From contig CAJWFS010000003.1 of assembly GCA_913030665.1 (NCBI GenBank), forward strand, positions 101-64,100: 64,000 nt of DNA, written 5' to 3'. The translations under genes and the position numbers were made by a program. The stretch's first letter is position 1; each line of letters starts with the position of its first letter. The DNA is from an uncultured Acidimicrobiaceae bacterium (lineage in GTDB: Bacteria > Actinomycetota > Acidimicrobiia > Acidimicrobiales > MedAcidi-G1). The notes under the pieces are model-generated. The model ran no database searches and had not been told where the DNA came from. It saw only the letters and a program-made list of their open reading frames with translations. Shown here in pieces: positions 1,098 to 48,151 of the stretch.

Positions 1098-1149
1098 GTG
1101 TGCGCGGATCGTACAAGACTCCGAACGGTCCGATCCCGACTATGTAGGC

Positions 1150-4100
1150 ATGGTCACGACCCGAGAGCGACGTCGTTCCTCCGAAGGAGGCGAACCCGTT
1201 CCAGGTGCCACCGCCCCGGCCTCGGACGGGGCGGGCAGGCATGTCGATCCGGACGCCCTGGCCGAGGACGCCGTGGCGGTCGTGGCCCGCTGGTTGACCG
1301 AGGCCCACTCGACCGAGACGCCCACCGAGCGCCGTTCGACCGACCGGATGCGGGCGATCATCGCCGATCCGGGCGGCATCGGATTCACGATGCGGTTCGT
1401 GGACCGGGTCGCCCGACACCGCCAGGACGTGCTCGCCGCCGAGCAGCTGGTCCGCCTTGTCACCGACCGGGGCCTGCCGGGCTTCCTGGGCCCCATGGAC
1501 CGGCTGATGCTCCAGGCGGGGGCCCGGTTGGCGCCGGCCCTGCCCCGGCTGGTCATGCCACTGGCCCGTCGTCGGCTCCGCCAACTGGTTGGCCACATGG
1601 TGGTGGACGCCGCTCCGGATTCGATGCACGACCACCTGTCCCGGCGTCGGGCCGATGGCTACGCCATGAATGTGAACCTCCTGGGCGAGGCCGTTCTCGG
1701 CGAGGGCGAGGCCTCCCGTCGCTTCGAGCGCACCCTCGAACTGATCCGGGATCCGGCGGTCGACTACGTCTCGGTGAAGGTCTCGGCCATCGCCAGCCAG
1801 CTCAACATGTGGGCGTTCGACCACACCCTGGAACGCATCAAGGACCGACTCCGGGTCCTGTACCGGGCGGCTGCGGCAGCCCCCACGGAGGCCGGTCGGA
1901 CCACCTTCCTGAACCTCGACATGGAGGAGCACCGGGACCTGGAGGTCACCCTCCGGGCGTTCATGGAGTTGCTGGACGAACCCGACCTCAGGGACCTGGA
2001 CGCCGGAATCGTGCTGCAGGCCTACCTGCCTGACGCCTTCGGGGCCCTTCAGCGCATCACGGCGTGGGCCTGTGCACGGTCCAGCGCCGGCGGGGGAGAG
2101 GTGAAGGTCAGACTGGTCAAGGGAGCCAACCTGTCAATGGAAAGGGTTGACGCGTCGATGCACGGTTGGGTGCAGGCGCCCTACGGGACCAAGGCCGAGG
2201 TGGATGCCAACTACAAGCGGTGCGTGGACTGGGCCCTGCGACCCATCCACGCCCGCTCCGTCCGCATCGGCCTCGCCAGCCACAACCTGTTCGACGTGGC
2301 CTGGGCCCACCTCCTGGCCGAGGCACGCGGCGTGGCCGACAGGGTGGAGTTCGAGATGCTCCAGGGCATGGCGCCGTCCCAGGCCCGCGTGGTCCGGGCC
2401 GAGGTCGGGAGCCTGCTCCTCTATACGCCGACCGTGGGACGCGACGACTTCGACGTCGCTGTCAGCTATCTCTTCCGCCGGTTGGAGGAGAACAGTTCCG
2501 AGGAGAACTTCCTCCACCACCTGTTCACCCTGCGGCCGGGCACGCCGGACTTCGAGGAGCAGGCCGGGTGCTTCCGTGCAGCGGTGGCCAGCCGTTGGAA
2601 GGTGGGTGACCTGCCCCGCCGCGAGGTCGAGGTGCCGCCCGGGGGTGGTGGACGGTTCCGGAACCAGCCCGACGGCGATCCGACGCTTCCGGCCACCCGC
2701 CGCCGCCTGGAGGTGCTGACCGCAAGGGCGTTCGAGCCGGTACGGACCACGCTGACCTCGACGATCGACGGGATCGATGCCGAGGTGGCCACGGCCCGTG
2801 TCGCCCAGGCTGAGTGGGGCGCACGTGGAGCCTCCGAGAGGTGCGAGGTGCTGCGGCGCGTGGCCGACGAGCTCGTGGTCCGACACGACGACCTGCTCCT
2901 GGCCATGATGCACGAGGCATCTAAGACGGTGGCCGAGGCGGACCCGGAGATCGGAGAGGCGGTCGACTTCGCCCGCTGGTACGCCGAGCGTGCGACGGAG
3001 TTGGAGCGCATCGACGGCGCGGAGTTCACGCCGCTGGGGGTGGTGGCCGTGATACCCCCGTGGAACTTCCCGGTGGCCATACCTGCGGGCGGGACGCTGG
3101 CTGCGCTGGCTGCCGGCAACGCCGTGGTGTTCAAGCCGGCTCCAGAGACGCCCCGTTGCGCCGAGTTGGTGGCGGAGGCCTGCTGGGCTGCCGGCGTACC
3201 GCCCGACGTGCTGAGGTTCGTCCGTACCCCCGATGACGAGGTCGGCCGTCGGCTGGTGACCACGGTCGACGGTGTGATCCTGACGGGCTCGTATGAGACG
3301 GCCGACCTGTTCCGCTGCTGGGACCCGAACATGAGGCTCTTCGCCGAGGCCAGTGGCAAGAACGCTCTGGTCGTGACCCCTCAGGCCGACCTGGACCTGG
3401 CGGCCGCCGACCTGGTGCTCTCGGCGTTCGGCCACCAGGGCCAGAAGTGCTCGGCTGCCAGCCTGGGGATCCTCGTGGGTCCGGTGGCCACCGACGAGCG
3501 GTTCCTGAGACAGCTGGTCGATGCGGCAACCTCCCTGCATATCGGTCCCGCCACCGATCCCGCCACCGTGTTCGGCCCCCTCGTGGCCCCGGCAGCCGGC
3601 AAGCTGCTTGATGCCTTGACCGTGCTGGCCCCCGGCGAGGAGTGGTTGCTAGAGCCGCGACGCCTGGATGCCGATGGACGGGTGTGGACGCCGGGGATCA
3701 AGGCCGGGGTGCGTGCCGGTTCGCAGTTCCATCGCACCGAGTACTTCGGACCGGTCCTGGGCCTGGTCGCCGTCGACACCCTGGAGGAGGCCATCGAGGT
3801 CCAGAACGCCGTGGACTACGGGCTGACCGGGGGCATCCACTCCCTGGACCCGGTCGAGGTGGATGCCTGGCTGGAGGCCGTCGAGGTGGGGAACGCCTAC
3901 GTCAACAGGGCCATCACCGGTGCCATCGTGCAGCGCCAGCCGTTCGGGGGCTGGAAGAGGTCGTCGGTCGGGGTGGGTGCCAAGACCGGCGGTCCCGACT
4001 ACCTCCTGCAGCTCGGCACGTGGGCGCCGGCGACGGATCTCTCCGAGGTGGACGCAGCCGAGCTGGCCATCGCCGACGACGGTTGGTGGGAGGACCACTA

Positions 4101-4509
4101 CGGGATTCCGCACGACCCGACGGGCCTGTTCTGCGAGGTGAACGTGCTTCGCTACCGGCCCCTCCCGGACCTGGTAGTGCGGGTCGGGCCCGGTGCGACG
4201 GCGGCAGAGGTGGACCGGGTGCTGGCGGCGTCGGCGCGCTGTGGGGTGGTGCCGCTCGTGAGTCGGGCCACCGTCGATGACGACGTCACGTTCGCTGGCA
4301 CGCTGACCGCCCACAGGTTCGGCCGGGTCCGTGCGGTGGGCTTCGTGTCCGAGTTGATCCGCCGGGCGGCCATTGCAGCCGAGGTGGACCTGGTTGATGA
4401 AGCGGTCACGGCCAGTGGTCGCCTCGAGCTGCGCCATCACCTCCGCGAGCAGGCGGTCAGTCGGACCCTGCACCGCTTTGGGAACCTCGTCGGCGCTAGT
4501 GACGACTGA
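1150..4509 (+). CDS. putA: bifunctional proline dehydrogenase / L-glutamate-gamma-semialdehyde (P5C) dehydrogenase
   Basis: Long ORF in the track (946-4509). The N-terminal half has proline dehydrogenase motifs ('MNVNLLGEAVLGE', 'VSVKVSA', 'FLNLDMEE', 'VRLVKGANL', 'EMLQGM'). The C-terminal half is ALDH-like ('VIPPWNFP', 'FKPAPETP', 'EASGKNA', 'GQKCSA', 'TEYFGPVL'). I chose the in-frame ATG at 1150 because the track start at 946 overlaps the araC-like gene; ATG 1096 is an alternative. Confidence 0.9.
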   Translation: MVTTRERRRSSEGGEPVPGATAPASDGAGRHVDPDALAEDAVAVVARWLTEAHSTETPTERRSTDRMRAIIADPGGIGFTMRFVDRVARHRQDVLAAEQLVRLVTDRGLPGFLGPMDRLMLQAGARLAPALPRLVMPLARRRLRQLVGHMVVDAAPDSMHDHLSRRRADGYAMNVNLLGEAVLGEGEASRRFERTLELIRDPAVDYVSVKVSAIASQLNMWAFDHTLERIKDRLRVLYRAAAAAPTEAGRTTFLNLDMEEHRDLEVTLRAFMELLDEPDLRDLDAGIVLQAYLPDAFGALQRITAWACARSSAGGGEVKVRLVKGANLSMERVDASMHGWVQAPYGTKAEVDANYKRCVDWALRPIHARSVRIGLASHNLFDVAWAHLLAEARGVADRVEFEMLQGMAPSQARVVRAEVGSLLLYTPTVGRDDFDVAVSYLFRRLEENSSEENFLHHLFTLRPGTPDFEEQAGCFRAAVASRWKVGDLPRREVEVPPGGGGRFRNQPDGDPTLPATRRRLEVLTARAFEPVRTTLTSTIDGIDAEVATARVAQAEWGARGASERCEVLRRVADELVVRHDDLLLAMMHEASKTVAEADPEIGEAVDFARWYAERATELERIDGAEFTPLGVVAVIPPWNFPVAIPAGGTLAALAAGNAVVFKPAPETPRCAELVAEACWAAGVPPDVLRFVRTPDDEVGRRLVTTVDGVILTGSYETADLFRCWDPNMRLFAEASGKNALVVTPQADLDLAAADLVLSAFGHQGQKCSAASLGILVGPVATDERFLRQLVDAATSLHIGPATDPATVFGPLVAPAAGKLLDALTVLAPGEEWLLEPRRLDADGRVWTPGIKAGVRAGSQFHRTEYFGPVLGLVAVDTLEEAIEVQNAVDYGLTGGIHSLDPVEVDAWLEAVEVGNAYVNRAITGAIVQRQPFGGWKRSSVGVGAKTGGPDYLLQLGTWAPATDLSEVDAAELAIADDGWWEDHYGIPHDPTGLFCEVNVLRYRPLPDLVVRVGPGATAAEVDRVLAASARCGVVPLVSRATVDDDVTFAGTLTAHRFGRVRAVGFVSELIRRAAIAAEVDLVDEAVTASGRLELRHHLREQAVSRTLHRFGNLVGASDD

Positions 4510-6352: not shown

Positions 6353-7159
6353 TCAGGCGTCGTCGGCCAGCGAGGCGGGGATGGGCAGGCGGGTCATGCG
6401 ACCACCGTCGACGGTCACCACCTGCCCGGTCACGAAACCGGCATCGGCCGAGGCGAGCCAGAGGGCGGTGGCGGCGATGTCCGCAGGATCGCCGATGCGT
6501 CCCACCGGATGCAGCGACGCCAACTCGGCCATCGTCGTCTCACGGTTCGGGTGCCTGTCCACGTAGCCGCGGTTCAGGTCGGTGTCGATCCACCCGGGGG
6601 CGATGGCGTTGACACGTATTCCCATGGGGCCGAGGTCCACGGCCAGCGCACGGGTGAGGCCATGGATTCCCGCCTTGGAGGTGGCGTAGGCGGCGTGCAG
6701 GGCGTTGGCGGCCAGCCCCTCGATCGATCCGATGTTGATGATCGAGGGCGAGCCCCGCCCATCCATGAGGGGCAGCAGGTGCTTGACCATCAGGAACGGG
6801 CCACGCAGGTTGACAGCCATCGTGAGGTCCCAGTCGGCAACCGTTTCGTCCAGGATCGACCGGGTGTCCATGATCCCGGCGTTGTTCACCAGGACGTCGA
6901 CGCCGCCGTGCCCGGCCTGCACCGATTCGGCGAACTCCAGAACCGATATCTCGTCGGTCACGTCCAGGGGGACCCATTCTCGGTGTCCGGCGACGTCAAG
7001 GCCGGCCCCCACCTCGCCTGGATCGGTGAGGTCGCCGATCACGACGGTGGCCCCCTCGGCGGCCAGGCGGTCCACTATCGCCCGACCGATCCCGCGTGCA
7101 CCACCGGTCACCACCACTATCCGACCCTGCATCCGTACCGGTGCGTCCTGTCCGGTCAT
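6353..7159 (-). CDS. short-chain dehydrogenase/reductase (SDR)
   Basis: 'VVVTGGARGIGRAI', 'NNAG', and 'YATSKAGIHGLTRALA' (YxxxK). The start ATG at 7159 overlaps the stop of the upstream SDR (ATGA). The 633-aa track ORF is an upstream shadow extension. Confidence 0.9.
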   Translation of the reverse strand: MTGQDAPVRMQGRIVVVTGGARGIGRAIVDRLAAEGATVVIGDLTDPGEVGAGLDVAGHREWVPLDVTDEISVLEFAESVQAGHGGVDVLVNNAGIMDTRSILDETVADWDLTMAVNLRGPFLMVKHLLPLMDGRGSPSIINIGSIEGLAANALHAAYATSKAGIHGLTRALAVDLGPMGIRVNAIAPGWIDTDLNRGYVDRHPNRETTMAELASLHPVGRIGDPADIAATALWLASADAGFVTGQVVTVDGGRMTRLPIPASLADDA

Positions 7160-7947
7160 GCTGCCGTGTACCCCCCGTCGATGCTGAGGTTCGCTCCGTT
7201 CACGTGACGGGACCGGTCGTCGGCCAGGAAGGCCACCAGCTCGGCCACCTCCTCGCCGGTCGGGATCCGACCTTCGGGGATGGTCGCCAGGTTGGCCGCC
7301 CGGACCTCTTCGACGGTGTCGCCGCGCTCCGAGTACAACATGTGGGTGTCCACGGCGCCCGGACAGACGGCATTGATCCGGATGCCCTCGTGGGCGTGAT
7401 CGAGGGCCATGGCACGGGTGAGGTTGGTGACCGCACCCTTGGAGGCGCAGTAGGCGGCCAGCCCGACGGCGCCGACCAGGCCGTTGGTGGAGCTGACGTT
7501 GACGATGGACCCGCCCCCAGCTGCCCGGATGGCCGGCAGGGCCGCCCGGCTGCTCCTGAACAGGCCGTCCACGTTGGTGGCCATGACTCGGTGCCATTCC
7601 TCGTCGGAGGTGCCCTCGGCGTCGGCCCGGGTGATCACGCCGGCCGCGTTGACCAGCACGTCGAGGCGACCGAAGGCGTCGATGGCGGCCGCCACGGCTG
7701 CATCGCCGTAGCCGGGATCGGTCACGTCCCCCAGAGCGGTGGCGGCCGCACCACCGGCGGCGGTGATCTCCTCCACGACGCTGTCGGCGCGCTCCACGTC
7801 GCGCCCCCCGACCAGGATCGCCAGGCCGTCGGCCGCCAACCGCAGTGCGCACGCCCGCCCGATCCCCGAGGTTGCCCCGGTCACCAGGGCGACCCGCCGG
7901 ATGTCGGGTGTGGTCGACTCCAGGTCCTGTGCGTCCGTCCGTGTCAT
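7156..7947 (-). CDS. short-chain dehydrogenase/reductase (SDR)
   Basis: 'ALVTGATSGIGRACA', 'NAAG', 'YCASKGAVTNLTRAMA'. Confidence 0.9.
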   Translation of the reverse strand: MTRTDAQDLESTTPDIRRVALVTGATSGIGRACALRLAADGLAILVGGRDVERADSVVEEITAAGGAAATALGDVTDPGYGDAAVAAAIDAFGRLDVLVNAAGVITRADAEGTSDEEWHRVMATNVDGLFRSSRAALPAIRAAGGGSIVNVSSTNGLVGAVGLAAYCASKGAVTNLTRAMALDHAHEGIRINAVCPGAVDTHMLYSERGDTVEEVRAANLATIPEGRIPTGEEVAELVAFLADDRSRHVNGANLSIDGGYTAA

Positions 7948-7974
7948 CTAGGTCCTCCCTCTGGGCTCTGGGCC

Positions 7975-9294
7975 CTACATCTCCCGGCCGGACCGCATCC
8001 GCAGTCGGCGGGCGTACAGGTTCACGCCCCAGCCGAGGAGCGGGTCGGGGAGGTTCCGGTTGGGCCGTCCCGTGGCCAGCATCCCGTCCAGCAGGTCCGA
8101 GCCCTCGCCGCAGACCATCTCGGCTATGAGCTTTCCGCAGATCGCCCCACGGCTCAGCCCCGTGCCGTTGTGGACCAGCGCACCGTGGATGCCGTCGGCG
8201 AGGCGTCCGAAGACCGGTTCGCCGTTGCGGGCCATGGACAGCGCACCGCCCCACGAGTAGTCGAACGGCACGTGCGCCAGGCCGGGGAACCGACGCTCGA
8301 AGGCCACCCGGTGGGCTCCGGCGGCCCGACGCCGGAAGCGGCCACCGGCCATCGAGTGACGGCTGTAGCTGTAGACGTTGCGGATCAGGATCCGGCCGTC
8401 GACCAGGCGTCGCACCGTGGTGCCGGACGGTGCCGCCGGGATCACACCCCAGGTCAGGTCGCCACCTATTGAAGCCGACTCCTCGTCGGTGAGCGGTCGC
8501 GTCATGGACCCCCAGGTCACGACCGGAATGAGGTGGTGGGCGTAGAAGCCAAAGCCGACGGCGAAGCCGTTGTTAGCCAGCACGAGCTCCGGGGTGCGGA
8601 TGGTTCCACCGTCGGTGTGCAGCTCGTGGGGTGGGCCCTCGTCCAGCCACGTCACCGGAGTTTCCTCGTGGACGGTCACGTTGGCCGGCAGGGATGCGGC
8701 CAGGCCCCTGCAGAGTGCAGCCGGCTGCAGCAGCACCGTCCCGGGGGTGTGGAGAGCCCGGTGGTAGTAGTCGATGCCCAGCCGCGCCACGGTGGCGTCG
8801 CTGTCCAGCAGTTCGTAGTCCTCGTCGATGAGGTCGAGCGTGGCAGCGAAGTGGTCCAGGTCCCGTGCCCCGCGGTTGGTGCACGCGGCGTGGATCTTTC
8901 CGGCCCAGGTCCAGTCGCAGTCGATGCCGTGGGCCGTCACCGCCTCGGCGAGGTAGGCCTGTCCGGCCCTGTTCAGGGCGATCTGCTGCCTCTCGTATGT
9001 GGCCGAGTCGGCGAAGCCCTCGGAGCGGATGTTGTGGGCGTGGTCGATGGCGAAGCCGGACGACCGCCCGGCGGCGCTGTTTCCGATCCGGCCCGCTTCA
9101 ACGAGGAGGATCCGGGCATCCGGACGTAGTTCGGCCAGCCTGCGAGCGGCCGCCAGCCCTGTGAACCCGGCGCCCACGACGACCACGTCGGCTTCCGTCG
9201 GACCGGAGAGCGGTGCGGCCGGCGGCACCTCGGCCAGGGTCTCGAACCAACCGTTGTTCCTGTCGTACCTGGGCAGGAGCGTGACGGCACCCAT
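7975..9294 (-). CDS. FAD-dependent oxidoreductase, DAO family (amine / D-amino-acid type oxidase or dehydrogenase)
   Basis: 'DVVVVGAGFTGLAAARRLAE' is a Rossmann GxGxxG motif. The ~440-aa size and general look match PuuB, D-hydroxyproline dehydrogenase and sarcosine-oxidase-beta-like enzymes. Confidence 0.85.
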   Translation of the reverse strand: MGAVTLLPRYDRNNGWFETLAEVPPAAPLSGPTEADVVVVGAGFTGLAAARRLAELRPDARILLVEAGRIGNSAAGRSSGFAIDHAHNIRSEGFADSATYERQQIALNRAGQAYLAEAVTAHGIDCDWTWAGKIHAACTNRGARDLDHFAATLDLIDEDYELLDSDATVARLGIDYYHRALHTPGTVLLQPAALCRGLAASLPANVTVHEETPVTWLDEGPPHELHTDGGTIRTPELVLANNGFAVGFGFYAHHLIPVVTWGSMTRPLTDEESASIGGDLTWGVIPAAPSGTTVRRLVDGRILIRNVYSYSRHSMAGGRFRRRAAGAHRVAFERRFPGLAHVPFDYSWGGALSMARNGEPVFGRLADGIHGALVHNGTGLSRGAICGKLIAEMVCGEGSDLLDGMLATGRPNRNLPDPLLGWGVNLYARRLRMRSGREM

Positions 9295-9327
9295 CGTGGC
9301 CTCCCCCGTCCGATCAGCGGTCCGCCA

Positions 9328-10824
9328 TCAGGAAAGGTCCATCCAGATGGTCTTCAACTCGGTGTACTGCTCGTGGGCCGCGATCGACTTGTCCCGGCCA
9401 CCGAAGCCCGACTGCTTGAACCCACCGAAGGGCGTGGTGATGTCGCCCTCGCCGTAGCAGTTCACGGCGACCGTTCCGGCCCGGATGGCCCGTGACGCCA
9501 GGTGGGCGGTGCGAAGGTCGGTGGTGTGGATGGTGGCGGCCAGCCCGTAGTCGGTGTCGTTGGCAAGACGGATGGCCTCCTCGGGCGTGTCGAAGGTGGT
9601 CACAGCCAGGACCGGTCCGAAGACCTCCTCGCGGGCCAGGCGGCTGGAGGGATCCACATTCGTGAAGACGGTGGGCTCCACGAACCACCCACCGCTCTCC
9701 ACGCGCACCCGGTTGCCCCCGATGGCACACGTCGAGCCGGCTGCGTGCGCGTCCGCTATGTGGCCCAGCACCTTGTCCATGTGGGCCTCCTCGATCATGG
9801 CCCCCACGGTCGTCTCGGGCACCAGGGGGTCGCCCACCACCCAGTCGCGGCTGCGTTCGGCGATGCGCTCCATGAGCTCGTCGAGGACCGAGTGCTGGAC
9901 GATGAGCCGTGAGTTGGCGCTGCAGTTCTGGCCTCCGTTCCAGAAGATCCCCTCGCAGATTCCTGTCGCCGCGGCATCCAGGTCGTCGGCGTCGGCCATG
10001 ACTATGACCGGGCTCTTGCCGCCGCACTCCAGCAGTACCTCCTTGAGGTTGGAGTCGGCCGAGTAGCGGAGGAAGTGGCGGCCTACCTCGGTGGATCCGG
10101 TGAAGGCGACGCAGTCCACGTCCGGGTGCAGTCCGATCGCTGCGCCGGCCGTTTCGCCGAACCCCGGGACCACGTTCAAGACGCCGTCCGGGATCCCGGC
10201 CTCGACGGCCAGCTCGGCCACCCGGATGGTCGACATGGAGGTCTGCTCTGCCGGCTTCACCACGCACGTGTTGCCGGCCGCCAGGATCGGGCCGATCTTC
10301 CAGCCGGCCATCATCAGCGGGTAGTTCCAGGGCAGCACGGCGCCGACCACGCCGACTGGCTCGCGGACCACCATCCCGACCTTGCCGGGGCCCGACGGCG
10401 AGAGCTGGTCGTAGAGCTTGTCGCACGCCTCGGCGTGCCAGCGCAGGGTCATCACCAGGTCGGGGACGTCGATCCCCGAGCAGTCGCTGATCGGCTTGCC
10501 CGCCTCCAGCGTCTCGATGATGGCGAGCTCGTCGGTGTGGGCCTCCACCAGGCTGGCGAACCGCAGCAGCAGCAGCTTGCGGTCAGCGGGCGCCATGCGA
10601 CCCCAGGGCCCCTCCTCGAAGGCGGCCCGTGCCGCGGCGACGGCACGGTCCACGTCCGTGGCATCGCACTCGGAGACCTGGGCCAGCTCGCGACCGGTGG
10701 CCGGATCCAGGGTGGCAAAGGTCCGTCCGCTGGCCGACTCCACGCTGCGGCCCCCGATGAGGGCCCGCGTCGGAGGCTGCACGGATGCCGCCAGGGCTGT
10801 CGGATCTGCAAGGTCGGTGGTCAT
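9328..10824 (-). CDS. NAD(P)+-dependent aldehyde dehydrogenase
   Basis: 'VLPWNYPL', 'VVKPAEQT', 'ECGGKSP', 'GQNCSANSR', 'EEVFGPVL'. The start was moved to ATG 10824 ('MTTDLADP'), which overlaps the stop of the upstream gene (ATGA). Confidence 0.92.
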   Translation of the reverse strand: MTTDLADPTALAASVQPPTRALIGGRSVESASGRTFATLDPATGRELAQVSECDATDVDRAVAAARAAFEEGPWGRMAPADRKLLLLRFASLVEAHTDELAIIETLEAGKPISDCSGIDVPDLVMTLRWHAEACDKLYDQLSPSGPGKVGMVVREPVGVVGAVLPWNYPLMMAGWKIGPILAAGNTCVVKPAEQTSMSTIRVAELAVEAGIPDGVLNVVPGFGETAGAAIGLHPDVDCVAFTGSTEVGRHFLRYSADSNLKEVLLECGGKSPVIVMADADDLDAAATGICEGIFWNGGQNCSANSRLIVQHSVLDELMERIAERSRDWVVGDPLVPETTVGAMIEEAHMDKVLGHIADAHAAGSTCAIGGNRVRVESGGWFVEPTVFTNVDPSSRLAREEVFGPVLAVTTFDTPEEAIRLANDTDYGLAATIHTTDLRTAHLASRAIRAGTVAVNCYGEGDITTPFGGFKQSGFGGRDKSIAAHEQYTELKTIWMDLS

Positions 10825-11852
10825 CGGGTGCTCCTCGTCGGGATCGTCCTGCCCACTCCCGCCCGGTCGGTCATGCGTACCAGCCAGTCGCGTTCGTCGT
10901 CCCATTCCCGGAACACCAGGCGGTCACGGTCCACCCGGTTCGTCGGCAGCGTGGAGAGGGCGGCGGTCAGCGATACGCGGCCCCGGCGGGTCATGGGCAT
11001 CACCGGCCGACGGCACGGGCCTACCGGCCGACCGACCATGTTGGTGGCCGTCTTGACCGCCACGTTGTACTCGGCGTCCACGGCGTTGTCCCAGAAGAAC
11101 AGGTTGGCTGGCAGCATCCGATTCCAGAGCTCGAGTGCCTCGAGGTTGCGACCGGCGATGATGTGGTCGTAGAGGGCCACGCACTCGTGCGGCATGACGT
11201 TGGCGGCGCCCCAGATCCAGCCTGCCGAGCCGGCCATGAGGGCGTACGGGGCCAGTGGGTCGGCTCCGGACAGCACGTGACCGCCGATGCCCAGCAACTG
11301 CTGGATGCGTATCAGGTCACCTGTGGAGTCCTTGATGTAGTCGATGTTCTCCATGGCTATGAGCTTCCGGTACAGGTCCGGGGTGATGTCGAAGCCGGAC
11401 TGTGCAGGGATGTTGTAGAGGACGATGGGGGCGTCGATGGCCCGGGCCAACTTCTCGTAGTGGTACATGACCCCGCGTTCGAACGGTCCCTCGAAGTACG
11501 GAGGGAGGACCATCACGGCGCTGGCTCCCAGGCCGATCGCAGCCCGGGAGTTCTCTATGGCGTCCACGGTGGTTATCGCCGACGTCTGACAGATGACCGG
11601 GATGCGGCCTGCCACCTGTTCGATGCCGACCTCGAAGGCGCGGCGCTTCTCGTCGGTCGAGAGGAAGGCGAACTCGCCGGTGCCGGCGGCCAGCACCAGG
11701 CCGTGGATGCCTGCGTCGACGAGGCTCTCGACGTGGTCGCGCAGTCGCCCCTCGTCGAGCGACTCGCCGGAGTCGTCGAACGGGCTGCACATGGCGGCGC
11801 AGACGCCGTGGAGCAGTGGCGGTTCCGGGGCGGTGCCGTTGGTGGTGGTCAT
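10821..11852 (-). CDS. DHDPS/N-acetylneuraminate-lyase family (class I aldolase fold) enzyme
   Basis: 'GLVLAAGTGEFAFLSTDEKRR', 'VMVLPPYF', 'LYNIP', and 'IKDSTGD' (Schiff-base Lys context). Confidence 0.88.
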   Translation of the reverse strand: MTTTNGTAPEPPLLHGVCAAMCSPFDDSGESLDEGRLRDHVESLVDAGIHGLVLAAGTGEFAFLSTDEKRRAFEVGIEQVAGRIPVICQTSAITTVDAIENSRAAIGLGASAVMVLPPYFEGPFERGVMYHYEKLARAIDAPIVLYNIPAQSGFDITPDLYRKLIAMENIDYIKDSTGDLIRIQQLLGIGGHVLSGADPLAPYALMAGSAGWIWGAANVMPHECVALYDHIIAGRNLEALELWNRMLPANLFFWDNAVDAEYNVAVKTATNMVGRPVGPCRRPVMPMTRRGRVSLTAALSTLPTNRVDRDRLVFREWDDERDWLVRMTDRAGVGRTIPTRSTR

Positions 11853-11890
11853 GTCGGATTCCTCGGGATTCTGGGTGGGCTGTCGCCGTC

Positions 11891-13438
11891 TCAGGTGACC
11901 AGGTCCGGCAACTCGGCATCACGACGAGCCACGTAGTCGTCGAGTTCTTCGCGGACGTGGTCGTCCAGTGCCGGTTCCTCGTACTCGTCGAGCATCTGGC
12001 GGCACCTGGCAGCTGCCCTCTCCTCGGCGCTCTGCGACCCGTCGGCCAACCACTGTTCGTAGTTGTCGCTGTTCATCATCTCGGGCATCGAGAAGGCGGT
12101 CTGGAAGTTGGCCAGCGTGTGCTCCGTGCCGAGGTGGTGGCCGCCCGCCGGCACCGAGCGCATCGAGTCCAGCACCTCGTCCAGGTCGTCGAACGAGACC
12201 CCGCTGCCCAACTGGTACATGAGCTCCAACTGCTCGCTGTCCAGGACCCACTTGGCGTAGCTCTGGCACATGGCGCTCTCCAGGTAGCCGGTGGTGGAGA
12301 GGACGAAGTTCGTGCCCGCCATGAGCACGCCGTACATGTTGCGGGCCGCCTCGTAGCCGGCCTGGGCGTCGACCATCTTGGAGCTCGTGCACGAGCCGCT
12401 GCAACGCGACGGAAGGTTGTAGTGGCGGGCCATCTGTGCGGTGAGCAGGTTCATGTGGCAGATCTCAGGCGTGCCGGCCTGGGGAGCGCCGGTACGCATC
12501 GAAACGGTGGACAGCCACTGGCCGTAGAGGGCAGGGGCGCCCGTACGGACCAGCTGCGAGAAGGCCACGCCGGTGAGGGCCTCGATGTTGACCTGGATGA
12601 CCGCCCCGACCGTGGAGGCCGGCGTGGAGGCGCCACCCAGCACGAACGGGCTGAAGAGCGTGGCCTGGTTGGCGGCTGCGAAGACCCGGACGCTGTCCAG
12701 CATGGTCTTGTCCCAGACCAGGGGGGTGTTGGCGTTGGCCAGGCAGGTCATGACGGTCGTCTCGCGTACGAAGTCTTGGCCGAACACGATTCCCGCCATG
12801 TGCAGGCTGTCCTCGGCTCGGTCCATGGAGGTGACCGCTCCCATGAACGGCTTGGACGAGTACTTCAGGAGGCTCTCCGTCATGTAGAGGTGCCGCTTTG
12901 GGACCGGTACGTCCATCGGCTCGCAGACCACCCCGCCCGACATGTGAAGTGCCGGCGACAGGTGGTTCAGCTTCGTGAAGTCACGGAAGTCCTGAAGGGT
13001 GGCTGGGCGACGGACGCCGTCAAGGTCCAGCACGTACGGGGCGCCGTAGGAGGGGGTGAAGATGGTCCTGCCATCGCCGACAGTGACCGTGTGGGCCGGG
13101 TCGCGGGCCACCATCGTGTACGAGGAGGGAGCGGTGCCGACGAGAGACATCAGGTGCTCGCGGTCGATGCGCACGGTGACACCGTCAATGTCGGCCCCGG
13201 CCGCACGCCACATGCCGATGGCGTCGTCGCACCTGAACTCGACGCCCACCTCCTCGATGATGTCCATGGAGGCGTCATGGATCCTCTGGACCTGCTCGTC
13301 GTCGAGCAGGTCCACCCAGGGGATCCTGCGCTCCAGCTCGGGAAGCCACCGCTGGACCCTGGTACGGCGCTTCGCTGCCCGGGCATCGCGACCCCGGCGG
13401 ACTCCTCGCTGTGGCCGGACCGTGCTCGTGTCGGTCAT
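11891..13438 (-). CDS. MttB (trimethylamine methyltransferase) superfamily protein, non-pyrrolysine type
   Basis: 515 aa from ATG 13438 ('MTDTSTVRPQRG'). It has an Arg-rich N-terminus and the segments 'FMGAVTSMDRAEDSLHMAGIVFG', 'SPFVLGGASTPAS' and 'MRTGAPQAGTPE'. There is no in-frame TAG. The 848-aa track ORF is an upstream shadow extension. Confidence 0.85.
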   Translation of the reverse strand: MTDTSTVRPQRGVRRGRDARAAKRRTRVQRWLPELERRIPWVDLLDDEQVQRIHDASMDIIEEVGVEFRCDDAIGMWRAAGADIDGVTVRIDREHLMSLVGTAPSSYTMVARDPAHTVTVGDGRTIFTPSYGAPYVLDLDGVRRPATLQDFRDFTKLNHLSPALHMSGGVVCEPMDVPVPKRHLYMTESLLKYSSKPFMGAVTSMDRAEDSLHMAGIVFGQDFVRETTVMTCLANANTPLVWDKTMLDSVRVFAAANQATLFSPFVLGGASTPASTVGAVIQVNIEALTGVAFSQLVRTGAPALYGQWLSTVSMRTGAPQAGTPEICHMNLLTAQMARHYNLPSRCSGSCTSSKMVDAQAGYEAARNMYGVLMAGTNFVLSTTGYLESAMCQSYAKWVLDSEQLELMYQLGSGVSFDDLDEVLDSMRSVPAGGHHLGTEHTLANFQTAFSMPEMMNSDNYEQWLADGSQSAEERAAARCRQMLDEYEEPALDDHVREELDDYVARRDAELPDLVT

Positions 13439-13469
13439 AGGTGTACAGGTCCGGTTCGCACCGTCGGAT

Positions 13470-13498
13470 GCTTGCCGTGATCGGTGCTGAAGGCAAGC
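13470..13498. promoter_or_regulatory. perfect 7-bp inverted repeat GCTTGCC-N15-GGCAAGC in the mttB-like / CoA-transferase divergent region
   Basis: Read directly from the sequence. It lies 32 nt from the mttB-like start codon. Confidence 0.45.
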
Positions 13499-13546
13499 GA
13501 GGCCCCCGCATTGCCGTGTCGTGCCGCCGCTGAGAGACTCCCGCTC

Positions 13547-14734
13547 GTGCCGGACAGCCCCGATGACGATCAGCGTGCCGATACCGGTGCGTTGGGCCAC
13601 CTCCGGATAGCCGACTTCAGCCGGGTGCTGGCGGGGCCGATGGCCACGATGGTGCTGGGTGACCTGGGCGCCGACGTGGTGAAGGTCGAGCAGCCGGGCG
13701 TGGGCGACGAGACCAGAACCTGGGGTCCGCCGTGGTGGGGCGAGGGGGGTGCGGCGACCAGCACCTACTACCTGGGCCTGAACCGCAACAAGCGCAGCAT
13801 CGCGCTGGACCTCCGGGATGCCGACGACCTCACCGTGGCACGGAGGATCGCCCTGGGTGCCGACGTCGTGGTCGACAACTTCAGGGTGGGCACCATGAAA
13901 CGCTTCGGCCTGGACAGGGAGTCGCTGGCCATCGAGCGTCCCGACCTGGTTACCTGTTCGATCACCGGATTCGGCAGCACCGGAGCCGGTGCCCGCCTGG
14001 CCGGCTACGACTTCCTGGTCCAGGCCATGAGCGGGGTGATGTCGATCACGGGCGACGCCGATGGCGAACCGACCAAGGTCGGATCGGCGATGGTGGACAA
14101 CCTGACCGGTCTCTACGCCGTGATCGCCATCCTGGCGGCCATCGAGGAACGCCACTGGACCGGTCTCGGCCAGCACGTGGAGGTCTCGCTCATGGGGGCG
14201 GCCCTGGCCGGCCTGTTGAACGTCGGGTCGGGGCACGTGGTGGCTGACATCGATCCGGGCAGGCAGGGCAACCGGCACCCGTCGATCGTCCCATATCAGC
14301 CGTACCGGACGTCGGACGGCGTGCTGGCCGTGGCCGCCGCCAGCCCGAGCCTCTGGGAGAGGTTCTGCGTGGTCCTGGGGCGGGACGACTGGCTGACCGA
14401 CGTCCGCTTCTGCGACAACGGGTCGCGGATGCGACACGCCGACGATCTGGAGGTCGAGATCGAGTCAGCCCTGGCCACCGATACGACGGAGGCGTGGTTG
14501 GAGCGCCTGCGTGCCGGCGGCATCCCGGCGGGGCCGATCAACACGGTGCGCAGCGCGTTCTTGGAGGCGACTGAGCTGGGCCTGGACCCGGTCGACGTGT
14601 TCGAGGATGGCGACGGGGAGTTCAGGTCCGTGCGGTCGCCCATTCGGATGTCGGCGACGCCTCCAACGGTGAGGCGGCGACCGCCGACCAACGACCAGCA
14701 CGGCGCCGAACTCCGCTCCGGGCTGGATTCCTGA
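13547..14734 (+). CDS. CaiB/BaiF family (class III) CoA-transferase
   Basis: 'RIADFSRVLAGPMATMVLGDLGADVVKVEQP' and 'YYLGLNRNKRSIALDL'. I preferred the GTG 13547 start because the track start at 13484 lies inside the inverted repeat. Confidence 0.88.
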   Translation: MPDSPDDDQRADTGALGHLRIADFSRVLAGPMATMVLGDLGADVVKVEQPGVGDETRTWGPPWWGEGGAATSTYYLGLNRNKRSIALDLRDADDLTVARRIALGADVVVDNFRVGTMKRFGLDRESLAIERPDLVTCSITGFGSTGAGARLAGYDFLVQAMSGVMSITGDADGEPTKVGSAMVDNLTGLYAVIAILAAIEERHWTGLGQHVEVSLMGAALAGLLNVGSGHVVADIDPGRQGNRHPSIVPYQPYRTSDGVLAVAAASPSLWERFCVVLGRDDWLTDVRFCDNGSRMRHADDLEVEIESALATDTTEAWLERLRAGGIPAGPINTVRSAFLEATELGLDPVDVFEDGDGEFRSVRSPIRMSATPPTVRRRPPTNDQHGAELRSGLDS

Positions 14735-18165: not shown

Positions 18166-18708
18166 ATGCGCGCCATGCACGTCGCGGACGAGGTCCTCGG
18201 TTTGTTCGCGGCACATGGTGGGAACACCTATGCGGAGCAGGTTTCCATGGAGCAGCACGCCCTGCAGGCTGCGGCCCTGGCCCGGGCCTCCGGTGCGTCG
18301 GACGCTCTCGTGCTAGCCGCCCTGCTCCACGACGTCGGGCACTTCCTGGCCCAGCCCGACTCGGAGTTCGGCGTGACGGACCACGGCACGACGGGAGGAG
18401 CGTGGCTGGCCGAACGGTTCGAGCCGGCGGTCAGCGAGCCGGTCCGGCTGCACGTGGCGGCCAAGCGGTTCCGGTGCTTCGTGGACCCTGCCTACGAGGA
18501 GCAGCTCAGCTCGGCATCCGTCGGGACGCTGCGCCTCCAGGGTGGTGCCATGTCGGCCGCCGAGGCCCGGGAGTTCGAGGCCGAGCCGTTCGCACAGGAC
18601 GCCCTGGCCCTCCGGTCGTTCGACGATGGCGGCAAGGTCGCCGGCCTGGAAATACCGGCGCTCGACGAATGGCGCCCGCTGCTGGACTCGCCGGGGTTCC
18701 GCCTGTGA
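18166..18708 (+). CDS. stand-alone HD-domain protein, putative PhnZ/TmpB-like di-iron oxygenase
   Basis: 'SMEQHALQAAALA..(24 aa)..LLHDVGH...DH...RLHVAAKRF'. The H / HD / H / H ligand spacing resembles phosphonate-associated HD oxygenases. Assignment as a CDS is secure; the function is an inference. Confidence 0.6.
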   Translation: MRAMHVADEVLGLFAAHGGNTYAEQVSMEQHALQAAALARASGASDALVLAALLHDVGHFLAQPDSEFGVTDHGTTGGAWLAERFEPAVSEPVRLHVAAKRFRCFVDPAYEEQLSSASVGTLRLQGGAMSAAEAREFEAEPFAQDALALRSFDDGGKVAGLEIPALDEWRPLLDSPGFRL

Positions 18709-28725: not shown

Positions 28726-28860
28726 CCGTCCTCAGGCCCAGCAGCGGTCGCTTCGGTGGCGCTAAACCGGGGGACGTGCGACCATTGGGGATCCGAGCGG
28801 ACTCGGTGGATCGCACCGACGGCGTTGCGACGACCCGCCCGGGGACAGAGGGGGTTGGAG

Positions 28861-29313
28861 ATGGAGGTCTCCGTCACCGTCAACGGTACCGGGCGTTCCG
28901 CCGACGTAGAGCCGCGCACGCTGCTGGTGCACTACCTGCGCGACGACCTGGGCCTGACAGGAACCAACATCGGTTGCGACACCAGTTCCTGTGGAGCGTG
29001 CACCGTGCTGGTGGATGGCCGGTCGGCCAAGTCGTGCACCCTGCTGGCCGCCCAGGTGGACGGCGCCGAGGTGACCACGATCGAGGGGCTGGCCACCGCC
29101 GATGGCCTGCACCCCATGCAGCAGGCCTTCCACGAGTGCCATGCGTTGCAGTGCGGCTACTGCACCCCGGGAATGGTCATGGCTGCCGTGTCGCTGGTCG
29201 ACGAGTACGACGACCTGGATGCGGCCGGTGTCCGGGTTGGCCTGGAGGGCAACCTCTGCCGCTGTACCGGCTACCAGAACATCGTCAGGGCCGTCCTGGC
29301 CGCCAGCGAATGA
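28861..29313 (+). CDS. [2Fe-2S]-binding small subunit of a CoxSLM / xanthine-dehydrogenase-family molybdo-hydroxylase
   Basis: '[16 protein letters not shown]', 'QCGYCTPG', '[11 protein letters not shown]'. The start was moved to ATG 28861. Confidence 0.92.
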
Positions 29314-29323
29314 GGGGTTCGAG

Positions 29324-40665: not shown

Positions 40666-40689
40666 GACCGTCCTCCCTTCCGGGCCGTT

Positions 40690-48145: not shown

Positions 48146-48151
48146 GCCTCC

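Follow-up and report, generated by a model that had tools for sequence, protein, structure and literature searches.

An operon in marine Acidimicrobiales associates a distinct MttB-superfamily methyltransferase with a putative hydroxyproline-betaine-type catabolic pathway

Results

A six-gene operon headed by a non-pyrrolysine mttB gene

The 64 kb window (the whole stretch of 64,000 nucleotides that was analysed) contains a string of six ORFs on the minus strand (Table 1), each matched over its full length by its family in a profile search and each backed in its reading frame by GC3 values of 0.81–0.89. Genes, positions and families agree with the original prediction. Two ATGA overlaps, also predicted, were read from the sequence: one joins the DHDPS-like and aldehyde dehydrogenase (ALDH) genes (10821–10824), the other SDR 1 and SDR 2 (7156–7159). 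The remaining intergenic gaps of 38, 33 and 27 bp carry Shine-Dalgarno-like motifs. SDR 2 is translationally coupled to SDR 1 through their overlap, and the two proteins may form a heteromer. The mttB ORF ends in TGA and has no in-frame stop inside it, confirming that it lacks an in-frame TAG; database entries with alternative shorter starts are 474–506 aa long.

Outside the operon, PutA lies where it had been placed. Translation probably begins downstream of the listed TTG start, which overlaps an AraC gene. PutA is syntenic with the operon in those close Acidimicrobiales loci whose flank is long enough to include it, and would be the expected sink if proline betaine were also a substrate. 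Two genes had been overlooked: a family III CoA-transferase divergent to the operon, which is not CaiB-like (69 bits), and a TmpA/gamma-butyrobetaine-dioxygenase-like gene ∼5 kb upstream. The gene block upstream of the operon is kept in close relatives only. An Rfam search of the window returned no cobalamin riboswitch and no other match.

Table 1. Features of the operon and its surroundings.
Feature	Position	Strand	Remarks
MttB-superfamily methyltransferase, non-pyrrolysine	11891–13438	-	First gene of operon; PF06253, 628.7 bits, full length
DHDPS/NAL-family Schiff-base lyase	10821–11852	-	PF00701, 185 bits
NAD(P)-dependent aldehyde dehydrogenase (ALDH)	9328–10824	-	PF00171, 561 bits
DAO-family FAD amine oxidoreductase	7975–9294	-	PF01266, 146 bits
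SDR 1, classical short-chain dehydrogenase	7156–7947	-	adh_short and adh_short_C2
SDR 2	6353–7159	-	adh_short_C2, 220 bits; ATGA overlap with SDR 1
PutA (proline dehydrogenase and P5C dehydrogenase)	946–4509	+	Pro_dh and Aldedh domains; outside operon
Family III CoA-transferase	13484–14734		Divergent to operon
TmpA/gamma-butyrobetaine-dioxygenase-like gene	within 18402–19829		Upstream of operon

The MttB protein belongs to a distinct subfamily

A search with PF06253, the family originally suggested, matched MttB (Table 1), and the Pyl-type model TIGR02369 scored it at 276, under its cut-off of 525. The nearest structures were 4YYC (474 bits) and Desulfitobacterium hafniense MtgB (DhMtgB; 367 bits). 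Pocket mapping and alignment to the Pyl position identified Y131, R345, C350, S381, Y385 and A389 as pocket residues. The Pyl-aligned residue, which had been singled out for inspection, is C350; this lineage has Cys at that position, and DhMtgB and 4YYC both have Leu. Among the glycine-betaine contacts of DhMtgB (PMC13080624), Y97 and R312 are kept, the latter being conserved in every member that acts on acidic quaternary amines (PMC13080624), and H348 and F356 are replaced. The signature Y-R-S-Y-A (Y131/R345/S381/Y385/A389) is invariant in 50-plus orthologues of at least 59% identity from four lineages, and differs in 4YYC, DhMtgB and paralogues of 53% identity or less. The MttB of this operon is a member of a distinct subfamily, new here, and its pocket, as judged from the aligned residues, is not a glycine-betaine site.

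Five partner genes follow the subfamily across phyla

SDR 1, SDR 2, DAO, ALDH and DHDPS genes were all present in 19/19 close Acidimicrobiales loci with an MttB orthologue, and each of them in 4–5 of 5 distant Acidimicrobiales loci. Among 13 alpha- and gammaproteobacterial MAG loci the counts of partners were 8–11, with 4 for ALDH. None of the five was found in any of 20 control loci with other MttB paralogues. The association is far beyond chance, and the set travels with this MttB subfamily only, across phyla and despite rearrangement. Gene order and orientation vary between lineages, which, we argue, reflects selection on function. Of all the partners, the SDRs show the tightest tie to the MttB clade, co-occurring with it across phyla; beside Mesorhizobium orthologues they are kept and paired with a lone hydantoinase-A-like gene in place of DAO and DHDPS.

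Enzymes of the proposed lower pathway

The trio of DAAO-, DHDPS- and ALDH-type enzymes is the established lower pathway for hydroxyproline and hydroxyproline betaine (PMC4113996). The DHDPS-like protein passed no equivalog model, scoring under the cut-offs for DapA (174 against 206), KdgD (89 against 374) and NanA. Its best homologues in cultured bacteria are 42–45% identical and lie in DAO-DHDPS-SDR-ALDH or proline-racemase-family/ALDH/DHDPS clusters. Its proposed role is that of a dehydratase/deaminase of pyrroline-4-hydroxy-2-carboxylate or the N-methyl analogue; alternatively, it could be a 4-hydroxy-2-oxoacid aldolase. The best NCBIfam match of the ALDH was PuuC (564, cut-off 850); a GucD-type KGSADH model gave 353 (cut-off 770), and no KGSADH model was passed. 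With 7UYY, AldA, AldC, KauB and PuuC as nearest structures, the ALDH can be classed as PuuC/KauB/AldA-like, with dehydrogenases of amino-aldehydes and aliphatic aldehydes as its closest relatives. It is 55–58% identical to ALDHs of hydroxyproline-type clusters in Leisingera and Mesorhizobium, and in cultured bacteria the closest homologues of both ALDH and DHDPS lie in clusters with proline-racemase-family genes. From this context we propose that it acts as a 2-oxoglutarate-semialdehyde dehydrogenase. The DAO matched the aminophosphonate oxidoreductase and L-pipecolate oxidase AmaA models best (∼122 bits, far under cut-off), and a sequence search for a solved homologue detected none. With the DAO adjoining DHDPS in islands of A. 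tumefaciens and S. meliloti it shares 42% identity; it belongs to the PuuB/AmaA-like subgroup and is proposed to oxidize N-methyl-hydroxyproline or hydroxyproline. Scores of 224 and 219 bits put the two SDRs above the cut-off (215) of the glucose 1-dehydrogenase subfamily model, and the PDB relatives of either are uninformative.

Since the DHDPS family includes KdgD and L-KDA dehydratases, and SDR sugar dehydrogenases with KGSADH complete such routes, the DHDPS-like protein, ALDH and SDRs could be read as a Weimberg/KdgD-type sugar-acid pathway (dehydrogenases, 2-keto-3-deoxy-acid dehydratase, KGSADH) with MttB and DAO as mere neighbours. The SDR scores on the glucose 1-dehydrogenase model fit such a pathway, but we regard it as very improbable. 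KdgD models gave the DHDPS-like protein only 89–104 bits against cut-offs of 278–374; a sugar-acid dehydratase, a lactonase and a sugar transporter are all lacking; the partners stay with the MttB clade through cross-phylum rearrangement and are absent from other paralogues; and in other lineages it is betaine and proline genes that lie nearby. A grouping with KdgD and KGSADH had been named originally as the contrary case; the DHDPS-like protein and the ALDH score under the cut-offs of those models.

Orthologous modules point to a cyclic betaine

HpbD is a hydroxyproline-betaine epimerase of the enolase superfamily. In Alphaproteobacteria, the orthologous modules adjoin an HpbD orthologue (472 bits to Paracoccus denitrificans HpbD, 4E8G; PDB codes from PMC3950512), in which the catalytic residues are present along with a conserved Trp, presumably the cation-pi Trp. 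They also adjoin a ProX-equivalog betaine SBP with ABC ATPase and permease, and orthologous modules further contain a LysR regulator and GbdR-like regulators. A Mesorhizobium island holds an Oxidored_FMN+Pyr_redox_2 flavoprotein, proline-racemase-family genes and an ALDH-DHDPS-FAD trio. In distant Acidimicrobiales the module is paired with an LhpJ-type cis-3-hydroxyproline dehydratase, not HpbD. Neither the window nor the flanks of close relatives contain an epimerase, betaine transporter or corrinoid gene, so the substrate clues come from orthologues 59–70% identical.

This context supports the (hydroxy)proline-betaine reading. The coupling of MttB to a hydroxyproline-type lower pathway, as originally predicted, is upheld by the HpbD, ProX and proline-racemase-family neighbours of orthologues, but the exact enzyme names given to that pathway are not borne out by sequence models. 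Likewise, an epimerase is indeed missing from the window, but the relatives have the enolase-superfamily HpbD rather than the proline-racemase type that had been expected.

No SDR takes part in the canonical hpb and lhp pathways; two of the six operon genes are therefore left without a step, and the substrate could be another hydroxylated betaine. The window also lacks an HpbA-type flavoprotein, which leaves the second demethylation without an obvious enzyme. A cobalamin-dependent demethylation, with its corrinoid partner elsewhere, might act on a different quaternary amine (a hydroxylated betaine such as carnitine, homoserine betaine or a di- or 3-hydroxyproline betaine, or else glycine betaine), an alternative that we consider unlikely yet deserving of weight. 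Here the DHDPS-like enzyme would be a retro-aldolase, as others of its family are aldolases and no equivalog was passed, splitting a 4-hydroxy-2-oxoacid into pyruvate and an amino-aldehyde or other aldehyde. The PuuC-like ALDH, nearest to amino-aldehyde dehydrogenases, would oxidize the aldehyde, and the two conserved SDRs, which suggest hydroxyl chemistry foreign to the canonical hydroxyproline-betaine pathway, would oxidize substrate hydroxyls. The TmpA-like gene upstream and the 3-hydroxyproline dehydratase, in place of HpbD, in distant Acidimicrobiales are also consistent with it. It is countered by the HpbD orthologues and ProX-type transporters directly adjoining the orthologue in Alphaproteobacteria. 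In addition, the glycine-betaine pocket is not conserved, and it is a different paralogue that sits beside MtgC; the CoA-transferase is not CaiB-like, and the upstream block is restricted to close relatives.

A predicted corrinoid partner

In none of the sizeable ORFs of the window did domain searches detect a B12-binding domain (PF02310/PF02607), a pterin-binding domain or one of RamA type, as the original prediction held, and a six-frame scan of the window for the cobalamin-binding motif DxHxxG..SxL..GG was also negative. No corrinoid, pterin-binding or RamA gene occurred in ∼0.5 Mb of flanks from related Acidimicrobiales. An MtgC-like protein (PF02607 and PF02310) is encoded ∼5 kb from the MttB orthologue in islands of four Mesorhizobium species (L047–L050), and an MtgE-like homocysteine S-methyltransferase near the orthologue in three loci (L037, L039, L052). 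A different MttB paralogue abuts MtgC in 16/34 metagenome loci, a hub-and-spoke layout.

Could MttB be a true orphan, using the cobalamin domain of MetH or free cobalamin, or methylating THF or another acceptor directly? Such methyl-handling chemistry would be new, and we think it quite improbable. The absence of corrinoid, pterin-binding and RamA genes from the window and related flanks is what it would lead one to expect, and Cys in place of Leu at the Pyl-aligned position also speaks for it; however, all characterized superfamily members known to us are corrinoid-dependent, and orthologues with the same pocket occur in Mesorhizobium with the MtgC-like gene in the island. Moreover, in aerobic marine bacteria MtgB relies on the corrinoid protein MtgC, which is shared, and on MtgD, a methyl-THF methyltransferase, and an unlinked arrangement of these is the demonstrated norm there (PMC12478193, 2025). 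The genes for MtgB, MtgC and MtgD occupy separate loci in Ruegeria pomeroyi, where reactivation falls to RamA and a DUF1638 protein (PMC12478193). Actinomycetota account for ∼5% of the mtgC reads from the ocean (PMC12478193), which further argues against an orphan. Because unlinked MtgC and MtgD are known, absence from 64 kb is expected wiring rather than an anomaly, and we infer that the corrinoid partner is encoded elsewhere in this organism's genome. The statements that characterized non-Pyl members all come from anaerobes, and that this protein is an orphan whose methyl acceptor is an open question, have been overtaken by that work (PMC12478193).

Discussion

A proposed pathway

The analysis establishes which families the genes belong to, how the operon is built, and that both the pocket and the cross-phylum gene association are specific to the clade. 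We see about an even chance that the six genes serve an aerobic marine member of the Acidimicrobiales in the catabolism of a cyclic alpha-carboxyl quaternary amine, with MttB and a corrinoid protein acting first; the likeliest substrate would be 4-hydroxyproline betaine, perhaps along with proline betaine. Family membership and orthologue context suggest that in MttB R345 would hold the carboxylate of the betaine and Y131/Y385 would contribute cation-pi contacts. One N-methyl group would pass to Co(I) of an MtgC-type corrinoid protein, encoded elsewhere and common to other methyltransferases, and then to tetrahydrofolate by an MtgD-type enzyme. The context further suggests that the DAO would oxidize N-methyl-hydroxyproline, removing the second methyl or forming a ring iminium directly. 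The DHDPS-like enzyme would dehydrate and deaminate the 4-hydroxy-2-oxo intermediate to 2-oxoglutarate semialdehyde, and the ALDH would convert this to 2-oxoglutarate. Any proline derived from proline betaine would enter the neighbouring PutA. We place both SDRs in the pathway, at no particular step, because no other partner is linked as tightly to the MttB clade; the original prediction had given them no role. The operon would then be a variant on known pathways, a B12-dependent demethylase of a proline-type betaine osmolyte wired to carbon-skeleton catabolism, and not a mystery enzyme.

Comparison with known systems

The closest solved structure, 4YYC (a putative trimethylamine methyltransferase, uncharacterized, which we take to be from Sinorhizobium meliloti), is likewise non-Pyl and shares the Arg-rich N-terminal extension of MttB. 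Its pocket, however, reads Y-R-L-H-W-G against Y-R-C-S-Y-A in MttB, and it groups outside the MttB clade with a 53% identical paralogue (L053).

The lhp/hyp pathway (4-hydroxyproline epimerase, cis-4-hydroxy-D-proline dehydrogenase, Pyr4H2C deaminase and KGSADH; PMC4113996, PMC5144071) brings the same three superfamilies together in one cluster. The closest cultured ALDH and DHDPS homologues lie beside proline-racemase-family genes, and LhpJ-type cis-3-hydroxyproline dehydratase occurs in related loci. The operon described here lacks a proline-racemase-family epimerase, and its DAO and ALDH are of other subfamilies (PuuB/AmaA-like, PuuC/KauB-like), making the equivalence putative.

In the Hpb pathway of P. 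denitrificans and Pelagibaca bermudensis for trans-4-hydroxyproline betaine and proline betaine (PMC3950512, PMC4113996), the lower pathway also consists of DAAO-, DHDPS- and ALDH-superfamily enzymes, with PutA for the proline branch, and its HpbD, betaine ABC transporter and LysR regulator recur in orthologous modules. The first demethylation is here assigned to an MttB-family enzyme instead of the Rieske oxygenase HpbB/HpbC. The window has two conserved SDRs and no HpbA-type flavoprotein, and HpbD and the transporter are not at this lineage's locus.

The proline betaine:corrinoid methyltransferase MtpB, which PMC13080624 and PMC12478193 name from Eubacterium limosum, resembles the role proposed here for MttB. 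It is a superfamily member that converts a cyclic alpha-carboxy betaine to an N-methyl imino acid via a corrinoid protein. Its host is an anaerobic acetogen, in which the methyl group enters the Wood-Ljungdahl pathway and the ring is not known to be degraded.

The MtgBCD(E) system of R. pomeroyi and other aerobic marine bacteria likewise has a non-Pyl pfam06253 methyltransferase in an aerobic host, with the substrate subunit encoded apart from the shared MtgC and MtgD and with several paralogues per genome that have no assigned substrate (PMC12478193). MttB differs in that S381 and A389 take the place of His and Phe and residue 385 is an additional Tyr, and its partner proteins are so far only predicted. 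The operon belongs to the Actinomycetota and places its methyltransferase inside a dedicated carbon-skeleton catabolic operon.

The MttB operon and its surroundings

The original prediction of six tightly spaced genes on one strand was borne out by the sequence. Six minus-strand ORFs were found at the coordinates tabulated below, all with a strong third-position GC bias in a window of ~69% GC, and full-length Pfam matches assigned their products to the families that had been named (MTTB, DHDPS, Aldedh, DAO and two SDR families). In a search with PF06253, the MttB protein scored 628.7 bits against a cut-off of 25, residues 14-511 aligning with positions 2-500 of the 500-position profile. Two ATGA overlaps were read directly at the DHDPS/ALDH and SDR1/SDR2 junctions; the remaining gaps are 38, 33 and 27 bp, with a purine-rich ribosome-binding motif ahead of each. 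There were no sigma-70 or intrinsic-terminator consensus matches, and an Rfam search of the entire window returned zero families, riboswitches included.

The start of MttB is ambiguous (13315-13484), public gene calls giving proteins of 515, 506, 481 and 474 aa. The long form is supported because its Arg-rich N-terminus aligns with the N-terminus of 4YYC, the closest solved structure. The longest start (13438) lies just 45 bp from the start of the divergent CoA-transferase gene. MttB proteins nearly identical to that of the window are encoded in marine metagenomes and in MAGs that carry the labels Acidimicrobiales, Microtrichales or "Candidatus Microthrix"; given these sources and the oxygen-dependent enzymes also encoded in the window, the earlier description of the host as an aerobic-type actinobacterium is reasonable.

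Coordinates of features in the window and, where a locus is named, in comparison loci
Feature	Positions	Strand	Remarks
PutA	946-4509	+	
SDR2	6353-7159	-	operon
SDR1	7156-7947	-	operon
DAO	7975-9294	-	operon
ALDH	9328-10824	-	operon
DHDPS-like	10821-11852	-	operon
MttB	11891-13438	-	operon
Family III CoA-transferase	13484-14734		divergent from MttB; not mentioned in the original prediction
TauD-family Fe(II)/2-oxoglutarate dioxygenase	18402-19829	+	TmpA/gamma-butyrobetaine-dioxygenase-like; not mentioned in the original prediction
Three-subunit molybdenum hydroxylase, xanthine/CO dehydrogenase family	28756-32517	+	
Polyamine or guanidino-compound style catabolic region	33635-46069		also contains an MFS transporter
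Two DAO-family oxidoreductases	33635-36513		
PotA-type ABC transporter with TOBE domain	36691-39571		
Class III aminotransferases, two	40798-42165 and 42701-43906		
Arginase-family hydrolase	45119-46069		
93-aa amidase-domain ORF and lower-GC ABC stretch	47864-52817		
MacB/FtsX-type ABC permease, 906 aa	48152-50872	-	
ATPase of the MacB/FtsX-type permease	50877-52817		
Tandem class I cysteinyl-tRNA-synthetase-family genes, two	61017-62405 and 62441-63952	- (both)	
680-aa hydantoinase/oxoprolinase A-like gene, Mesorhizobium island L042	12955-14997	-	no B subunit
680-aa hydantoinase/oxoprolinase A-like gene, Mesorhizobium island L058	11621-13669	+	no B subunit
Nicotinate phosphoribosyltransferase and DDAH/arginine-deiminase-fold genes, locus L028	7941-9332, 11546-12484		one Pseudomonadota MAG

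A carnitine role of CaiB type for the CoA-transferase was rejected because the protein resembles succinate-glutarate CoA-transferases (CaiB model, 69 bits) and is conserved in close relatives only. The dioxygenase gene lies 5 kb upstream of MttB and is a second one directed at trimethylammonium compounds. Its product best matched 2-trimethylaminoethylphosphonate dioxygenase TmpA (356 bits, below the cut-off of 400), followed by gamma-butyrobetaine dioxygenase (280 bits, below 415); its true start is probably at ~18.7 kb, since homology spans residues 121-461. Together with the succinate-glutarate-type CoA-transferase, an alkyl sulfatase and an acyl-CoA dehydrogenase it forms a block that is conserved in close relatives only and lies outside the MttB module.

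Further along the window, the molybdenum hydroxylase consists of a [2Fe-2S] small, a MoCo large and an FAD-binding medium subunit, and is preceded by glutaredoxin and TetR-like genes. The 93-aa ORF holds the N-terminal part of an amidase domain only and is followed directly by a lower-GC stretch (~0.625) carrying the MacB/FtsX-type genes. This stretch may be an insertion truncating the amidase gene; a look at its flanks revealed no notable repeats. The second cysteinyl-tRNA-synthetase-family gene may be a mycothiol ligase MshC-type paralogue, typical of Actinobacteria.

A binding-pocket signature marks the MttB subfamily

The MttB reading frame holds no internal in-frame stop, and the protein scored 276.1 against the Pyl-type model TIGR02369 (cut-off 525), outside that class. 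The Pyl of the reference structure 7XCL aligns with its Cys350. Across the 57 genome loci with MttB homologues, residue 350 differs between lineages and contexts: Cys stands there in the window lineage and in alpha- and gammaproteobacterial MAGs; Gln in most distant Acidimicrobiales loci, those with a cis-3-hydroxyproline dehydratase; Asn in Mesorhizobium/Ensifer, which have a hydantoinase-A-like gene as a neighbour; and Leu in 4YYC and in DhMtgB, the Desulfitobacterium hafniense-type glycine betaine methyltransferase.

The glycine-betaine contacts of D. hafniense MtgB are Y97, R312, H348 and F356 (Picking et al., 2026, PMC13080624). Relative to these, the window MttB retains the carboxylate-binding Arg (R345) and one aromatic residue (Y131), H348 and F356 are replaced by S381 and A389, and an additional Tyr stands at position 385; it is thus set apart from glycine-betaine enzymes of the D. 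hafniense type. The combination Y-R-S-Y-A was found in every orthologue of at least 59% identity among the 57 genome loci, in Acidimicrobiales, alphaproteobacterial MAGs, Arenicellales and Mesorhizobium/Ensifer; the pocket differs in DhMtgB, in 4YYC and in paralogues at 53% identity or less. We conclude that the Y-R-S-Y-A pocket marks an isofunctional MttB subfamily, whose substrate is probably an acidic quaternary amine of greater bulk than glycine betaine.

Five partner genes travel with the subfamily

The window proteins were compared by tblastn with the 57 loci, counts being restricted to loci of at least 12 kb.

Partner genes of the operon at MttB loci of at least 12 kb
Group	MttB identity	Loci	Loci with partner genes
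Close Acidimicrobiales	84-98%	19	all five partners 19/19
Distant Acidimicrobiales	66-71%	5	partner genes 4-5/5
Alpha/Gamma MAGs	62-66%	13	partner genes 8-11/13, ALDH 4/13
Mesorhizobium/Ensifer	59-61%	9	both SDRs 4, ALDH 3, DAO 0, DHDPS 0
Other paralogues	43-53%	4	0
MtgC-adjacent paralogues	41-46%	16	0

The two SDRs, DAO, ALDH and the DHDPS-like gene thus travel with this MttB subfamily, the SDRs being its most faithful partners. MttB-SDR-SDR and DHDPS-ALDH-DAO are transcribed divergently in distant Acidimicrobiales; in Proteobacteria, an SDR-SDR-DAO-(ALDH)-DHDPS block lies a few kb from MttB. This variation in gene order between lineages argues for functional coupling rather than inherited synteny, and the sequence flanking the rearranged modules showed nothing conserved besides the core genes. 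Within the window's lineage, the operon and PutA remain in synteny, which fits the upper-pathway enzymes common to hydroxyproline betaine and proline betaine (PMC3950512).

The lower-pathway enzymes and the SDRs

Genes of the DAAO, DHDPS and ALDH superfamilies together constitute the established route from cis-4-hydroxy-D-proline to 2-oxoglutarate, with which the hydroxyproline-betaine pathway ends (PMC4113996). All three lie in the operon, which at superfamily level matches the lower part of the known Hpb and lhp pathways (PMC4113996).

The DHDPS-like protein reached the cut-off of no equivalog model, falling short of DapA (TIGR00674, 174.1 against 206.15) and of KdgD (TIGR03249, 89.3 against 373.95; NF002958, 104.5 against 278). 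The ALDH likewise fell below the two KGSADH models compared, of the GucD type (NF042993, 353 against 770) and the haloarchaeal type (NF052305, 348 against 750). Given the KdgD scores, a sugar-acid pathway, with the two products acting as KdgD and KGSADH, is scarcely credible. By sequence the ALDH is PuuC/KauB/AldA-like; PuuC is the nearest subfamily, of which it is no member (564.5 against 850). The DAO is PuuB/AmaA-like, and no solved homologue of it was detectable by sequence. Beside these assignments have to be set a chemically plausible reading in which the DHDPS-like enzyme would be a retro-aldolase and the ALDH would act on an amino-aldehyde, and another in which the true substrate would be a different hydroxylated betaine; together we rate them as rather unlikely.

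The ALDH shares 55-58% identity with its counterparts in a gene trio on the Mesorhizobium sp. NZP2077 plasmid and in a Leisingera cluster, which consists of a proline-racemase-family gene, an ALDH gene and a DHDPS gene. Identity of the DHDPS-like protein to its Leisingera and Agrobacterium counterparts is 42-45%, the latter coming from a DAO-DHDPS-SDR-ALDH cluster beside an 815-aa FAD oxidoreductase, ETF, PurU and FolD. On A. tumefaciens 1D1609 pAt and S. meliloti AK57 pSymA this sub-module stands without any MttB gene; its neighbours are the 815-aa FAD oxidoreductase, both ETF subunits (alpha and beta), a cupin, PurU and FolD. This suggests that a THF-linked flavoprotein demethylase can supply this lower pathway in place of MttB. 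A stretch of S. meliloti 1021 pSymB, examined for an experimental anchor of the lower pathway, gave no matches.

For the SDRs, NCBIfam and the PDB returned generic SDR relatives only, and the described pathways for hydroxyproline and betaines offer no step for either protein. A role in cobalamin reactivation was considered and rejected, because that function is performed by RamA and a DUF1638 protein (PMC12478193).

Orthologous loci point to a hydroxyproline-type betaine as a probable substrate

All ORFs of the distant loci were clustered and the recurrent ones annotated. The modules of Proteobacteria encode a substrate-binding protein that exceeds the ProX equivalog cut-off (421 against 215), its ABC ATPase and permease, a LysR regulator, GbdR-like AraC/DJ-1 regulators and an MR/MLE enolase-superfamily protein. 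The alphaproteobacterial MR/MLE protein scored 472 bits to 4E8G/4J1O/4IZG and 400 bits to 2PMQ, structures of HpbD, the hydroxyproline-betaine 2-epimerase/proline-betaine racemase of P. denitrificans and P. bermudensis (PMC3950512). It retains both catalytic lysines, the metal ligands, D293 and one conserved Trp, which is taken to be the substrate-binding Trp though it lies ~8 residues off the numbering of PMC3950512. This HpbD homologue adjoins the MttB orthologue in 12 alphaproteobacterial or rhizobial loci. The window and its close relatives have no MR/MLE homologue; in distant Acidimicrobiales an MR/MLE gene lacking the HpbD Trp directly adjoins DAO-ALDH-DHDPS. The cis-3-hydroxyproline dehydratase of the latter loci is of the LhpJ type, an enzyme of hydroxyproline gene clusters (PMC5144071). 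Literature confirmation of the identity of 4MGG was not found, and an NCBIfam equivalog match was taken as evidence instead.

The NZP2077 plasmid carries two proline-racemase-family genes flanking the ALDH-DHDPS-FAD oxidoreductase trio, two SDRs, a hydantoinase-A-like gene, MttB and a ProX ABC system. Also encoded there are an MR/MLE protein, LysR and GlxA regulators, an Xaa-Pro peptidase and a flavoprotein with Oxidored_FMN and Pyr_redox_2 domains, which we take to be the HpbA/StcD architecture. This flavoprotein is confined to the Mesorhizobium island. The window ORFs encode neither a Rieske domain, as in HpbB/HpbC, nor an Oxidored_FMN domain, and the window holds no epimerase, no betaine transporter and no HpbA-type second demethylase. 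A search of a literature library found no paper connecting MttB with hydroxyproline betaine.

Two side observations concern genes near the orthologues. In Mesorhizobium islands the lone 680-aa hydantoinase A-like gene is placed between the SDR pair and MttB, its product matching caprolactamase alpha and acetophenone carboxylase gamma models weakly. At L028 the MttB orthologue has the nicotinate phosphoribosyltransferase gene upstream and is separated from the SDRs by the DDAH/arginine-deiminase-fold gene; other loci conserve neither of the two.

The search for a corrinoid partner

The corrinoid set reported missing is indeed absent from the window: no ORF in the 64 kb encodes a B12-binding, pterin-binding or RamA-type domain, and a scan of all six frames of the window for cobalamin-binding motifs was negative. 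Neither the window nor the Acidimicrobiales flanks held a PF02310/PF02607 protein or a methylcorrinoid:THF methyltransferase. When 1.24 Mb of collected sequence was scanned for the motif, genuine B12-binding proteins were found in Mesorhizobium only. In four species of this genus, the island of the 59-61% MttB orthologue includes a 230-aa B12-binding_2 plus B12-binding protein, whose best NCBIfam match is the shared corrinoid protein MtgC. An MtgE-like homocysteine S-methyltransferase lies near the MttB orthologue in three alphaproteobacterial loci. Among the metagenome matches listed for a Mesorhizobium MtgC-like query (relatives of at least 79% identity, with no actinobacterial sequence among them), 16 of the 34 long loci have a different MttB paralogue, 41-46% identical to the window MttB, adjoining MtgC. 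The layout is one of hub and spokes, with one paralogue beside the corrinoid hub and others dispersed with substrate-specific genes.

In aerobic marine bacteria, the MttB-family protein MtgB, the shared corrinoid protein MtgC and the bidirectional methyl-THF transferase MtgD demethylate glycine betaine (Mausz et al., 2025, PMC12478193). The genes concerned occupy separate loci in Ruegeria pomeroyi, genomes carry up to seven pfam06253 paralogues with unknown substrates, and ~5% of ocean mtgC reads are assigned to Actinomycetota (PMC12478193). The Mesorhizobium, MtgE-like and metagenome loci described above are consistent with this picture. The puzzle posed by an 'orphan' MttB, whose disposal of the methyl group had been called unresolved, is largely answered by such unlinked MtgC and MtgD. 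In the light of that precedent we regard a true corrinoid-independent orphan MttB as very improbable, the gap in the window and flanks notwithstanding. It is also improbable, if slightly less so, that marine Acidimicrobiales have no dedicated MtgC-type partner, a MetH cobalamin domain or other acceptor serving in its place, and that this and the SDRs form a route, not described before, that takes an N-methylated hydroxyproline-type betaine into central metabolism. If true, both the wiring of methyl transfer and an SDR-dependent step in ring processing would be new.

Discussion

We propose, with about even confidence, that the operon degrades 4-hydroxyproline betaine, perhaps proline betaine, to 2-oxoglutarate by corrinoid-linked demethylation and the DAO, DHDPS-like and ALDH enzymes. 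The MttB-family enzyme would transfer a methyl group from the betaine to a corrinoid protein encoded elsewhere in the genome, from which it would pass to THF. The DAO would oxidize N-methyl-hydroxyproline, the DHDPS-like enzyme would convert the 4-hydroxy-2-oxo intermediate to 2-oxoglutarate semialdehyde, and the ALDH would oxidize this to 2-oxoglutarate.

One marine MttB subfamily thereby gains a pocket signature, a gene module and a testable substrate prediction, hydroxyproline betaine or proline betaine, and the two SDRs mark a step absent from the textbook pathway. If the proposal is correct, cobalamin-dependent osmolyte demethylation reaches abundant marine Actinomycetota, the Rieske oxygenase of the hydroxyproline-betaine pathway can be replaced by a first step that needs B12 and no oxygen, and the turnover of another algal or plant osmolyte is tied to the ocean's vitamin B12 supply.

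Compared with known systems, the locus resembles the Hpb and lhp pathways where the carbon skeleton is concerned and the aerobic MtgBCD system in its logic of methyl transfer. New are the distinct MttB subfamily and the apparent exchange of the Rieske demethylase of the hydroxyproline-betaine pathway for it, as well as the two added SDRs and the occurrence in abundant marine Actinomycetota.
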